Positions 16,815 to 26,165 of a DNA stretch of 42,381 nucleotides are shown piece after piece; the stretch's first letter is position 1; every line of letters begins with the position of its first letter. The stretch lies in contig CAZUAY010000002.1 in the NCBI GenBank assembly GCA_964618405.1, positions 1 through 42,381 on the forward strand, read 5' to 3'. The DNA is from an uncultured Lentisphaerales bacterium (GTDB lineage Bacteria > Verrucomicrobiota > Kiritimatiellia > RFP12 > UBA3636). A program made the position numbers and the translations under genes. Under the pieces are notes generated by a model, which was given only the letters and a program-made list of their open reading frames with translations, did not search any database and was not told where the DNA came from.

Positions 16815-18929
16815 ATGACGAATGATTTTAAGTGGGGGCCAGCGAATCCGCATCCGCTCTCGAAAATGCGCACGGAATTGGTCTGGGATGGCAAGTACGA
16901 CGAGTACGGCAACCGCCGGGAGGTGGATGTTGCCGCCTGCTCCATGCCTATGCAGAAGATCGAGACCGTGGATGAGCCCCGCCAACGCGCCGCCGCCACA
17001 GGCCAAGGTGACTTCTTCGAGCAGAATCTGATGACCTTGCGTGAAAAAACGCATCCCTACGAGCCCGACTTCCGCAACCGCCTCGTCTGGGGCGACAACA
17101 AACTTGTCATGGCCAGCCTGCTCAAAGATTTCAAGGGCAAGATCGACCTGATCTATATCGACCCTCCCTTCGACGTTGGTGCGGACTTTACGATGGACGT
17201 GCCCATCGGCGACGGCAAGGAGACCGTCGGCAAAGACCAGTCCTGCCTTGAAATGGTGGCGTTCAAAGATATGTGGGGCAGAGGCACCGATTCCTATCTG
17301 CACATGATGTATGAACGGCTGTCGCTCATGAAGGAATTGCTCTCGGAGAAAGGGAGCATCTATGTACATTGTGACTCTCGGATGAACTCCTACCTTCGAC
17401 AAGTCCTCGACGAGGTTTTTTCGGGATTTAACTTCGTAAACCAAATTACTTGGCGACGTACTGGTGCCCATAACGACCCAGGTCGATACGGCATGATTTC
17501 CGATACAATCCTATTTTACACTAAGACTGAAAATTACATCTGGAATCAACAATTCGGTATTCGTTCCGACAAATCTGTTGCTACGTCGTTCTCTTACGTT
17601 GAAAAACCAGATGGTACTTGGGAACGGCTTTCGAAAGACCAAACGATTCCGTCCGGATGGAGAAGATTTCAATCCGTGACCCTTCGCAGTCCAAACCCAA
17701 GACCAAACCTCTACTACCCCTACAAGGGCTTTATGCCGCATAGGAATGGTTGGTCAATCGGCAAGGAACGGATGGAAAAGTATGACCGAGAAAACCGGCT
17801 CCTGTTTCCTGAAAGCAAAGAAGGTGCGATTCGTCTCAAAATGTATCTTGACGAGTCACCAGGAATTCCAGTTCAGGATTTATGGACTGATGTCGGCAAA
17901 CTCGAAGCCATTTCCTCCGAGAACTTGGGCTATGCTACCCAAAAGCCCGAAACTCTTCTCGAACGCATCATCAATGCGAGCAGTAATCCCGGCGATCTTG
18001 TCGCCGACTTCTTTTGCGGGAGCGGTACGACGGGCGCGGTGGCGGAGCGGCTGGGGCGGCGTTGGATACTGGCGGATCTGGGACGGTTTGCGATCCACAC
18101 CACGCGCAAACGTATGATCGACCTACAGCGTAGTCTGCACGATGTGGGGCAACCGTACCGTGCGTTCGATGTGTTTAACCTCGGGCGCTACGAGCGTCAG
18201 TGGTGGCAGAAGGAGCGGCTGCAAGGGGCTGAAGGGGAGCATCGCCGGGTGGTGCTGGAGTTTTTCAAGGCCGAGGTGCTTGCCAACCCGCCCAACCCGC
18301 TGCTGCACGGTCGCAAGGGCGGCGCGTTTTGTCATGTGGACGGCATCGACTCCGTCTTCACGCGTACGGATGCGCAGGCCGTGGCCGAGGCGGTGCGGCA
18401 GGCGGGAGGCCGCGAGGTCACGTGCTTAGCTTGGGAATTCGAGATGGATCTGAGGCAGTTTTGTCTGGGGCTTGAAGCGGGTCTCGGCGTGAAGATGCGC
18501 CTAGTACCCATTCCGCGCGAGGTAATGGAGAAGAACCGCACGTCGCCGCCACCGTTTCTCGAAATGGCAGTGTTGGAGGCGGAGGTTGTCCATCGGAAGG
18601 AAGACGGCGTGAAGTCGGTCGACGTCAAGGTCACCCAGTTTATGCCGTCGTTATCGGAAGTACCCAGCAAAGAGTTGGCGGCTTTGAAGGAGCGGGCGGT
18701 CAAGAGCGGTTTCGACTTCATCGACTTTTGGGCAGTCGACTTCGACTGGCAGCCGGGGCAACCGTTTCGGCACGATTGGCAGGACTACCGCACGCGCAAG
18801 GACCGCTCGCTCAAGACGGTGAGTGATGCGGGGCACGTTTACGACAAACCCGGCAAGCATACGATCTGTGTGAAGGTCGTGGACGTTTTCGGGTGTGACA
18901 CGAGCATTGTAGTGGAGGTCAACGTATGA
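16815..18929 (+). CDS. Type III-like Mod DNA methyltransferase (beta-class N6/N4) with PKD/Ig-like C-terminal tail
   Basis: Motif IV is DLIYIDPPF (17145-17171). Motif I is [10 protein letters not shown] (18006-18035). This order (IV, TRD, I) is typical of Type III Mod. The N-terminal [10 protein letters not shown] block is present. An extra ~250-aa C-terminal region ends in [23 protein letters not shown]. The tracked ORF begins at GTG 16773, but ATG 16815 with an upstream GGAGA is preferred. Confidence 0.85.
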
Positions 18930-25700: not shown

Positions 25701-26165
25701 ATGCTGGGTGTTGTTGACGAGGTCGCTAAAGGCCTGATTCTGCAGAAACTTACACCTTTAATGCCAAGCGGTATGCAGGAACAGCGGGAATGGTTCGAAC
25801 CGTATTTCGGTACTGCGGATCGTCGGTTGATTCCACACTATGAACAATTGGCGCGCAATTTGAAGAAAACCCTAGTTTATCGGAACGGGGTATCACCTTT
25901 GGGGCTTTTGCGCAGTTGTCTTGAGTATGCCCTCAACGACAACACGAAGCTGACGGGTGTTTTTGAGTCCGTGAAAGGAGAGTTTCGTTTCAGTGGCGGA
26001 CGCGATTTGCTTGCCTGTGTATGTCTAATTAACGATTTCAGAAACACCCGTGTAGCGCATCAGGAAGTGCCATTGACAGACGGGGAAGAGGCGAAAAAAG
26101 CTCTTGTTTCGTGGATTGCCGGGTTAGGCCAGCTCTGTCAGTCAGCAGGATTAGCGGGATATTGA
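22746..26165 (+). CDS. Type III-like Res subunit: SF2 DEAH helicase, PD-(D/E)xK nuclease and an extra C-terminal helical domain
   Basis: Motifs in order:
- The N-terminal FCQREAIETLIYLKE block.
- Walker A ATGSGKTKV (23190-23216).
- DEAH in MNDEAHHVW (23634-23645).
- A later helicase motif, VLMLREGWDV.
- A nuclease core, YTPDFFVRTHDGNYYLVETKG (25251-25313).

An additional ~230 aa (about 25480-26162) contains FRNTRVAH. Confidence 0.85.
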   Translation: MSEPLTIKTDALEPLYAAWEEPNRHRVRAESGEGAVVIKGRRPSNIAIAQNLRVMVKEWRDTFYFGASDTSRQLLHHWFNRTHRVNGDEFKYFFCQREAIETLIYLKEVRRLECLSQMIAEYGGSFAETAALGVTDEEDAWSRYAFKMATGSGKTKVMTLAIVWSYFHALRESESPMARHFVVVAPNLTVFERLKEDFKPEGGGPDIFDRDPLIPVEWRGDWNMTTVLQDEASGSSTGGTIYLTNIHRLYDNSKRRQSSGETYAWMGPAVSKAKALDTGAELRDRITSHRHVMVMNDEAHHVWDPDSAWNEAILSLHESIRKRGGDGLVAQLDFSATPKDNKANYFKHIICDTPLGEAVDAGIVKTPIIGRAGQLNEQATDNAAYKYEMHLNLGYQRWLKSREEWFKSGKKPLLFIMCEDTKAADEITQRLNHDSFFKELNSRTINLHTNLKGKVKKVGKGADAREVFVENEKDISDEDLKALRKLSRELDSGSSPYYCIVSVLMLREGWDVKNVTTIVPLRSYSSKAGILPEQTLGRGLRRMTPCGQANEIVAVVEHEAFARLYRDELSQEGLPLEIMDVGKVPTTTVSIYPDTAKKNTAALDIQIPQLTAANQTLPVLEAISESEVREVFQKYHPLPVGDQRGNDEVQYEGRQLITGEIVEYMKVSLPLLDTGVGAISFYEKQLEYICKVKGTHRVLGPLLQTFFEEILFGTGHSIYDSSLATRLSASDVVEHVRAVFVPLIRGKVMQKQVRTSETEPFSLASWRPFQVTVSERHPVRRAEKTLFNLVPCDRTLETAFAELCDKISDVSAFAKNAGPQCLRIDYLSEGMRLAFYTPDFFVRTHDGNYYLVETKGQADRDVPLKARAAIEWCKGASGKHGKWEYVFIPESVFQRFQGSSFKELVRMCAPALQDLTNAENFKEELPLFADMGMLEGRMDEAQGLVDAKILAALPTRMRKAADESISLFRFFEKKSEVNYAPVFTAMLGVVDEVAKGLILQKLTPLMPSGMQEQREWFEPYFGTADRRLIPHYEQLARNLKKTLVYRNGVSPLGLLRSCLEYALNDNTKLTGVFESVKGEFRFSGGRDLLACVCLINDFRNTRVAHQEVPLTDGEEAKKALVSWIAGLGQLCQSAGLAGY

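Follow-up and report, generated by a model that had tools for sequence, protein, structure and literature searches.

In Type III restriction-modification (R-M) systems the Mod protein methylates one strand of the DNA, and Mod and Res together cleave DNA with unmethylated sites in an ATP-dependent manner. R-M operons can also carry further genes, as in the Type I EcoprrI operon, inside which lies the gene of the anticodon nuclease PrrC, whose control by the R-M partner has been shown experimentally. Among PHP-ATPases, Ppl is said to have been described by Gao et al. in 2020 as a single-gene anti-phage protein. This paper discusses a locus of four genes, mod-trlF-trlG-res, at positions 16815-26165 on the + strand of a 42,381-nucleotide stretch of DNA (contig CAZUAY010000002.1, assembly GCA_964618405.1; hereafter the window) from an uncultured Lentisphaerales bacterium. 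The locus is best read as two separable modules, a Mod-Res pair and a TrlF-TrlG (TrlFG) cassette, which are probably co-expressed because the cassette came to lie between mod and res, and of which TrlFG would be a second-line, growth-arresting one.

The names TrlF and TrlG come from the temperature restriction locus (TRL), trlR-trlF-trlG, of Photorhabdus laumondii, where TrlG is an AlbA_2 + HATPase_c_4 protein that was formerly mis-annotated as RecG (PMC7554251). The phenotype seen in P. laumondii is a temperature-dependent growth arrest, reported with no phage test, and the arrest at 36 °C is relieved by point or nonsense mutations in trlG and likewise by deletion of the operon (PMC7554251). 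In PMC12904381 Ppl is described as a 3'-5' exonuclease that DNA 3'-OH ends and nucleotide depletion switch on. BioRxiv 10.64898/2026.05.29.728809 and PMC13462974 give the fusion of a Schlafen (SLFN) domain and a GHKL ATPase as the commonest prokaryotic Schlafen architecture, and report that proteins of the Schlafen-ATPase kind are found clustered with R-M and BREX; the authors of PMC13462974 also put forward, as a speculation, that cleavage products are what R-M-linked Schlafens sense. In addition, the recent Schlafen literature reports that transfer RNA (tRNA) cleavage by SLFN-pAgo is switched on by ATP-driven tetramerisation, and PMC13056530 and PMC13552941 report that Schlafen proteins of other architectures protect against phage.

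In the window all four open reading frames (ORFs) are co-directional. The mod gene (16815-18929, in an ORF open from 16773) encodes a Type III-like beta-class N6-adenine DNA methyltransferase of 704 residues, trlF (18926-21613) an N-terminal PHP phosphoesterase joined to an ABC ATPase of the Rad50/SMC-like type that is interrupted by a long coiled coil, trlG (21586-22737) a protein of 383 residues with a Schlafen/AlbA_2 domain and a GHKL-type ATPase, and res (22746-26165) a Type III-like restriction subunit of 1139 residues. The ATG at 16815 is the likely start of Mod, because a GGAG box lies about 10 nucleotides upstream and homologues align from residue 1. The mod/trlF junction is a 4-nucleotide ATGA overlap, trlF and trlG overlap by 28 nucleotides, and a gap of 8 nucleotides separates trlG from res; all three junctions, described before in an earlier note on this DNA, were found again from the ORF coordinates, and the spacing and overlaps support its view that the four genes look like a single unit for transcription and translation. 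The final codons of mod (GTGGAGGTCAACGTATGA) hold the ribosome-binding site for trlF, and the GGAGG-type sites of trlF and trlG each lie inside the gene before. The ribosome-binding site of res is weak, and res therefore probably relies on re-initiation. Scans for consensus promoters and terminators were uninformative, with counts at or below shuffle expectation (6 terminator-like sites against 12.3 expected from shuffles, the 3 on the + strand all lying within mod).

On the reading preferred here, the first module would be the Type III-like Mod-Res pair and the second the TrlF-TrlG cassette of about 3.8 kb, inserted precisely where mod and res otherwise meet within a few bases. The final mod codons hold a ribosome-binding site that is normally for res and would now serve trlF, and res would restart 8 nucleotides past trlG. 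Carried by the R-M operon and expressed together with it, TrlFG would most likely serve as a second line of defence that arrests growth or targets nucleic acids; we infer this defence role, and likewise any cross-talk between the modules. The arrangement resembles that of PrrC in EcoprrI in that an accessory, potentially suicidal effector gene is embedded and co-expressed in an R-M operon, and it differs in that the proteins are unrelated to TrlFG and in that control by the partner is known for PrrC, whereas for TrlFG it would be conjectural.

The outer genes have the characters of a Type III-like pair. Mod carries DPPF (residues 116-119, 17160-17171) ahead of FCGSG (residues 400-404, 18012-18026), that is, motif IV DPPF/Y before motif I FxGxG, the order that defines a beta-class N6-adenine methyltransferase, and it matches Pfam N6_N4_Mtase at 149 bits and PADLOC MTase_III at 746 bits. 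Res carries the superfamily 2 (SF2) helicase motifs GSGKT (residues 151-155, 23196-23210) and DEAH (residues 297-300, 23634-23645), followed by a PD-ExK nuclease, PDF...ETK (residues 838-855, 25257-25310). It matches Pfam ResIII at 58 bits, together with a weak TnsA-like nuclease match, and PADLOC REase_III at 91 bits over part of the protein. The Type III-like motifs that the earlier note had read in both proteins are therefore all present, with profile matches to N6_N4_Mtase, MTase_III and ResIII. In its mod-then-res order, its beta-class Mod with DPPF before FxGxG and its Res with helicase motifs before the PD-ExK nuclease, the pair is like the classical EcoP15I/EcoP1I type. Unlike that type, mod is not directly upstream of res, the 3.8 kb of trlF-trlG lying between them; Res matches the EcoP15I-type model PRK15483 very weakly (23 bits, the cut-off being 564); and about 240 residues at its C-terminus form an additional domain, conserved and all-alpha. 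The nearest NCBIfam family of Res is the BPTD_3080 family restriction endonuclease (284 bits, under the cut-off of 800), and its homologues are abundant, with full-length coverage and 64-79% identity. Because of this family membership, and by analogy with Type III systems, Mod would methylate its target, and Mod, Res and ATP would cut unmethylated incoming DNA by means of the PD-ExK nuclease.

The extra C-terminal domain of Res, also seen by the earlier reader, is indeed there (about residues 900-1139, about 25443-26162) and is conserved throughout the family, with an invariant motif FRNTxxAHQE (FRNTRVAH in the window, 26037-26060) that includes R1099-x5-H1105. An AlphaFold2 model of the domain is all-alpha, with a predicted local distance difference test (pLDDT) score of 85. 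The Rx5H motif, of the Rx4-6H form that marks HEPN RNases, suggests a possible HEPN domain; the profile support is one weak Pfam match to HEPN_AbiU2 (E=0.021, in 1 of 5 sequences), and Foldseek of the model against the PDB gave no match better than E=0.2, so neither Pfam nor Foldseek against the PDB confirmed a HEPN identity. More distant relatives of Res (37-40% identity) align to about residue 905 only and may lack the domain.

The relatives of this pair were followed in 80 metagenomic loci with Res homologues, 75 of which include the C-terminus of Mod and the N-terminus of Res. Full-length Mod homologues lie upstream of Res in these 75 loci, and in 62 of them mod and res are at most 65 nucleotides apart or overlap, the usual junction sequence being ...GGAGGT..TAAC-ATG or ATGA. 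Twelve of the 75 carry 0.6-1.9 kb of co-oriented cargo at the junction, namely two Fic proteins, RhuM, YhcG/DUF1016, Uma2, PIN, XisH and one AlbA_2+HATPase_c_4+Fic-like protein (examples are L087:8806-10008, L090:8932-10008, L144:8905-10008 and L119:8067-9962, and also L117:1020-1436, L111:1168-1542 and L133:1343-1924). The last of these proteins, a Schlafen-ATPase between Mod and Res in L119, is an unrelated insert with the canonical E-x4-E-x-K. Since 62 of the 75 pairs are adjacent and 12 carry cargo, Mod-Res is a self-sufficient two-gene family whose junction is open to varied insertions and has repeatedly received unrelated genes in the same orientation. TrlFG was found between Mod and Res in none of the 75 loci. 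TrlF-family genes do occur beside the pair: in L101 (738-3458, 533 bits) one lies upstream of and co-directional with Mod-Res, and in L160 (4058-7939, 432 bits) one stands beside Mod-Res, divergently oriented and accompanied by a TrlG-like partner. These two highly divergent genes are 22-27% identical to the window TrlF, yet above the NCBIfam cut-off, and they are independent acquisitions beside this Mod-Res family.

The inner genes are of families that already have names. TrlF belongs to the "TrlF family AAA-like ATPase" of NCBIfam (NF045780), scoring 548.6 bits over residues 19-885 where the cut-off is 350, and it matches Pfam AAA_21, SMC_N and AAA_15. It contains the PHP motif DFHLHT (19004-19021), Walker A GIRGSGKS (19862-19885) and Walker B IIDQPEDD (21302-21325), and a long coiled coil parts the two halves of its ATPase as in Rad50/SbcC. 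The PHP metal-binding residues and Walker A and B are invariant among homologues. A search for TrlF homologues gave 5030. Ppl is alike in having a PHP domain and an ABC-type ATPase in one chain, with detectable homology to TrlF; unlike Ppl, which acts alone, TrlF pairs with TrlG (in about 70 of 80 loci) and scores far under the Ppl cut-off (NF042955, 129 bits against 1000; PADLOC Ppl, 109 bits, partial). PADLOC matches of TrlF to GajA, LmuB and AriA are weak and at the level of the P-loop. The identities Ppl, PDC-M49, MADS, Gabija and Lamassu were ruled out by the PADLOC and NCBIfam scores, and PADLOC found none of the hallmarks of BREX, DISARM, Gabija, Lamassu or Druantia (PglZ/BrxC, DrmA/B, GajB, LmuA, DruE). 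Searching the solved structures by sequence for relatives of TrlF, TrlG and Res was uninformative.

TrlG matches Pfam SLFN_AlbA_2 at 72 bits (residues 14-127) and HATPase_c_4 at 51 bits (residues 297-379). Its motifs are GEDSRHQFK (residues 13-21, 21622-21648), the VAFSN Schlafen box, which includes 21691-21702, the N-box EELIAN (residues 281-286, 22426-22443) and the G-box GLGSG (residues 350-354, 22633-22647). Motifs and profiles thus bear out what the earlier note had read in the two inner proteins, a PHP domain with a Rad50-like ATPase and a Schlafen/AlbA_2 domain with HATPase_c_4. TrlG, in which AlbA_2 precedes a GHKL domain (PF13749) that bears both the N-box and the G-box, falls within the definition of the Schlafen + GHKL proteins called "Schlatpase" (bioRxiv 10.64898/2026.05.29.728809, PMC13056530, PMC13462974). 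It is like them, as they appear in the available passages of these papers, in its two-domain architecture, its VAFSN, N-box and G-box, and in its association with R-M and BREX, which was reproduced here for TrlG. It is unlike them in having E-x4-Q-x-K against the catalytic E-x4-(E/D)-x-K, and in being tied to a PHP-ATPase partner, of which those passages make no mention.

Compared with Photorhabdus TRL, the window TrlG has the same size and domain layout as its namesake. Several sites of loss-of-function mutations in Photorhabdus TrlG, S16, V35, A36 and G354, are identical in the window protein and fall in the GEDS motif (S16), the VAFSN Schlafen box (V35/A36) and the GLGSG G-box (G354), on the assumption that the two numberings are equivalent. 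As in Photorhabdus, trlG overlaps the end of trlF, and TrlF passes the NF045780 cut-off. Unlike the Photorhabdus locus, the window has no small trlR, and the cassette, having no upstream space of its own, is coupled to mod; there is no room for trlR because the mod stop overlaps the trlF start, and a 73-residue ORF further upstream (16604-16825) has no Pfam match. Moreover, TRL is flanked by polA and dsbA in Photorhabdus, and the window cassette by the Type III-like mod and res.

To see how TrlFG is placed elsewhere, 80 loci with TrlF, one from each of 80 species representatives, were compared. TrlG is directly downstream of TrlF in about 70 of the 80, and most of the others end too early to judge; the 28-nucleotide trlF/trlG overlap recurs in L081 and L083. 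None of the 80 loci has a homologue of the window Mod or Res. Neighbouring genes were clustered and annotated, and R-M (Type I, IIG, III) or BREX genes lie within four genes of TrlFG in at least 31 of 77 loci and directly adjacent in 24, a conservative count made by BLAST to a few annotated seed proteins. The Type I order is HsdR-TrlF-TrlG-HsdS-AAA_13-HsdM. In BREX operons (L041:1925-18302, L057:6428-16373, L062 and L020) the cassette comes right after the methyltransferase gene, both in type 3 (BrxC-PglXI-[TrlFG]-BrxHI-PglZ-BrxA) and in type 1 (PglX-[TrlFG]-PglZ). TrlFG also occurs beside Type IIG enzymes, next to AIPR abortive-infection genes and, in L023, after an unrelated Type III pair in the order Mod-Res-TrlF-TrlG. 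In the other loci TrlFG stands by itself, frequently behind a small ORF. Therefore, the conserved unit is TrlF-TrlG, alone or nested in other R-M or BREX operons.

The cassette is also found on plasmids, with TrlF in 233 PLSDB records, 169 of them conjugative and mostly of Enterobacterales. The IncC plasmid pNDM-1_Dok01 (NC_018994.1, 160137-176773) has the order HTH-HsdR-TrlF-TrlG-HsdS-AAA-HsdM, with 4-nucleotide overlaps between consecutive genes, in a Tn7-like element whose transposition genes adjoin the operon. Such Type I operons are like the window in that the cassette is nested co-directionally with overlapping starts and stops, and unlike it in the Type I host, the extra AAA_13 ATPase gene and a TrlF about 59% identical to that of the window. 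Viral contigs held 8 distant TrlF relatives, one of them with a TrlG-like gene, and these gave no supporting evidence for a phage-borne TrlFG cassette.

The closest relatives of the cassette tell something of its history. They are two TrlF clusters of 71-72% identity that are apparently stand-alone, and the small ORFs preceding them are in-frame remnants of the window mod. In L081 (2106-2297) and L082 (590-781) the relic comprises Mod residues 1-56 (70% identity) and then a few codons from the very end of mod, and in L083 (1696-1899) residues 1-39 are joined in frame to the last 25 or so residues. In L083 the DNA alignment spans window positions 18843-22804, that is, the 3' end of mod, trlF, trlG and the first 60 or so nucleotides of res; the res stub after trlG (5695-5800 in L083) is degenerate, with a frameshift and a stop codon. 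Because these relics derive from mod and res, the order Mod-TrlF-TrlG-Res was ancestral to this TrlFG sub-lineage, and because the end points differ between L083 and L081/L082, the deletions were independent. The four-gene order is thus older than the window contig and no accident of a one-contig assembly, and the R-M half, lost at least two times while TrlFG stayed intact, is dispensable. With the relics and the TrlF-family genes at L101 and L160, the juxtaposition of mod-res and TrlFG is not purely a one-off.

Several points weigh against this reading of separable, co-expressed modules. Co-transcription of mod, trlF, trlG and res is suggested by gene spacing alone. In TrlG the position of the catalytic Asp/Glu is taken by glutamine (Q19), which all 70 orthologues examined share and which also occurs (GEDSxxQFK) in a 40%-identical relative from a viral contig (L164); the E-x4-(E/D)-x-K of active prokaryotic Schlafen nucleases is absent from TrlG, whose catalytic site may be inactive or altered, and a tRNA-cleaving or nuclease role cannot therefore be assumed. 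No suppressor mutations arose in the larger trlF gene of Photorhabdus, so the role of TrlF there is unclear (PMC7554251). PADLOC 2.0 has no model for the TrlF-TrlG pair, and the literature searched held no paper that calls TrlFG a defence system or challenges it with phage. Furthermore, the translational coupling, the repeated nesting beside methyltransferases and the genes at L101 and L160 also fit a functional dependence of TrlFG on its host system.

Such dependence, with four layered and cross-talking genes and interchangeable partners, is a serious alternative, though we regard it as rather unlikely: TrlFG would sense that restriction has acted or failed, for example through DNA ends made by Res or a block of Mod/Res by a phage anti-restriction protein, and growth arrest or degradation would follow. 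In its favour TrlFG lies inside Type I, IIG and III R-M and BREX operons, co-oriented and usually by the methyltransferase or restriction subunit; divergent TrlF-family genes were gained independently beside Mod-Res (L101, L160), and a Schlafen-ATPase protein sits between Mod and Res in L119. PrrC in EcoprrI is a general precedent. Activation of the TrlF relative Ppl by 3'-OH DNA ends points the same way (PMC12904381), as does the speculation on cleavage products in PMC13462974. However, in over half of the TrlFG loci no neighbour could be recognised as R-M or BREX, Photorhabdus trlR-trlF-trlG causes growth arrest alone (PMC7554251), the closest relatives kept TrlFG after the loss of mod and res, and the junction takes unrelated cargo too, which fits a permissive insertion site. 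The same loss of the R-M half, at least twice with TrlFG intact, speaks against a single obligate machine built from all four proteins, a reading that we consider very improbable even though translational coupling extends over all three junctions and the relics show the same order in other lineages. Each half is common and intact alone, and none of the 75 Res-side or 80 TrlF-side loci shares the composition, so that the conserved four-component composite system proposed in the earlier note does not stand; the neighbourhoods largely show what that note had named as evidence of chance juxtaposition, middle genes only sporadically at mod and res, and in 62 of the 75 loci Mod lies right next to Res. 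Its further view that the combination was unnamed is true of the whole, no PADLOC 2.0 system having this four-gene composition, and not of the inner pair, which already bears the names TrlF/TrlG (NF045780). It is also unlikely, if somewhat less so than the obligate machine, that TrlFG is non-immune, either a regulator of growth or stress or a selfish, addiction-like cassette that uses the R-M operon, itself under strong selection, for expression and spread. The sole experimental phenotype, a temperature-dependent arrest recorded with no phage test (PMC7554251), the glutamine in the TrlG catalytic site and the frequent presence of TrlFG on conjugative plasmids, near resolvases or in a Tn7-like element agree with such a role, whereas the enrichment beside R-M, BREX and AIPR genes is what defence genes usually show, TrlF has a homologue, Ppl, whose anti-phage action has been validated, and Schlafen proteins of other architectures are given as protective against phage in PMC13056530 and PMC13552941. 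Two separable, co-expressed modules with TrlFG as the second line of defence thus remain the reading that we hold to be probable.

The surroundings of the operon include a vapBC-type toxin-antitoxin pair on the + strand (15380-16008; MazE/AbrB-like antitoxin 15380-15610, Pfam MazE_antitoxin; PIN toxin 15607-16008, Pfam PIN), which is context and lies outside the operon. An imperfect 30-nucleotide direct repeat (family D4) has one copy at 14939-14968 and the other at 26158-26187, overlapping the res stop codon; the copies are 77% identical and bracket vapBC and the four genes. Its core, TTAGGGGnnAGGCGT, has exact matches within the window at these two copies only, and no shuffle equalled that count. 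Both the nearby vapBC and the flanking repeats of the earlier note were accordingly found, and the repeat was rejected as an integration scar for being too short and imperfect. A tandem array of GATTAAGA(G/T)TAA lies just past res (26246-26365), and the 800-nucleotide gap between vapC and mod contains TGGAATAATGGAATG repeats (16138-16290) and a 43-nucleotide dispersed repeat (16075-16117/16530-16572).

Farther away there is a second island of low guanine + cytosine (GC) content at 34270-38085 (GC 0.39-0.40 at 35-37 kb), where a D12-class N6-adenine DNA methyltransferase (34270-35634) is followed by two ORFs assigned to no family, at 35636-36742, with no Pfam match, and at 36751-38085; this island may be another R-M system. 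Two adjacent large DUF4838 proteins of 640 and 848 residues are encoded on the minus strand at 9381-13895, and two SASA-esterase/GH2-like proteins lie at 280-2235 and 6300-8201. These genes make up a polysaccharide-utilisation setting around the defence island, and the carbohydrate-active enzyme genes together with HrpA suggest that the window is chromosomal. It contains no tRNA gene.

The component families were already known, and accessory genes and TrlFG nested in R-M operons are visible in public annotation and also come up in the Schlafen literature. New here are the hosting of TrlFG by a Type III-like operon, its exact and translationally coupled insertion at the junction, the relics that attest first persistence and then decay, and, for TrlG, a constant TrlF partner and an active site with glutamine. 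A wider idea, which we put forward only tentatively, is that TrlFG may be a widespread immune plug-in for methylation-based systems, in which TrlF would detect the DNA ends or stalled complexes that arise when the host system works or is blocked, and TrlG, with its non-canonical active site, would enforce growth arrest; if so, the window would hold the intact Type III-hosted form of the partnership between TrlFG and its hosts. As read here, the locus is an ordinary R-M pair whose junction has received a mobile cassette, and to see in it a novel machine of four proteins would be an over-reading. TrlFG is worth testing, with thousands of homologues, 233 plasmid records including clinical IncC plasmids and one published growth-arrest phenotype, and the intact Type III version, set against relatives with a decayed R-M half, offers a natural test of whether a nested module depends on its host.

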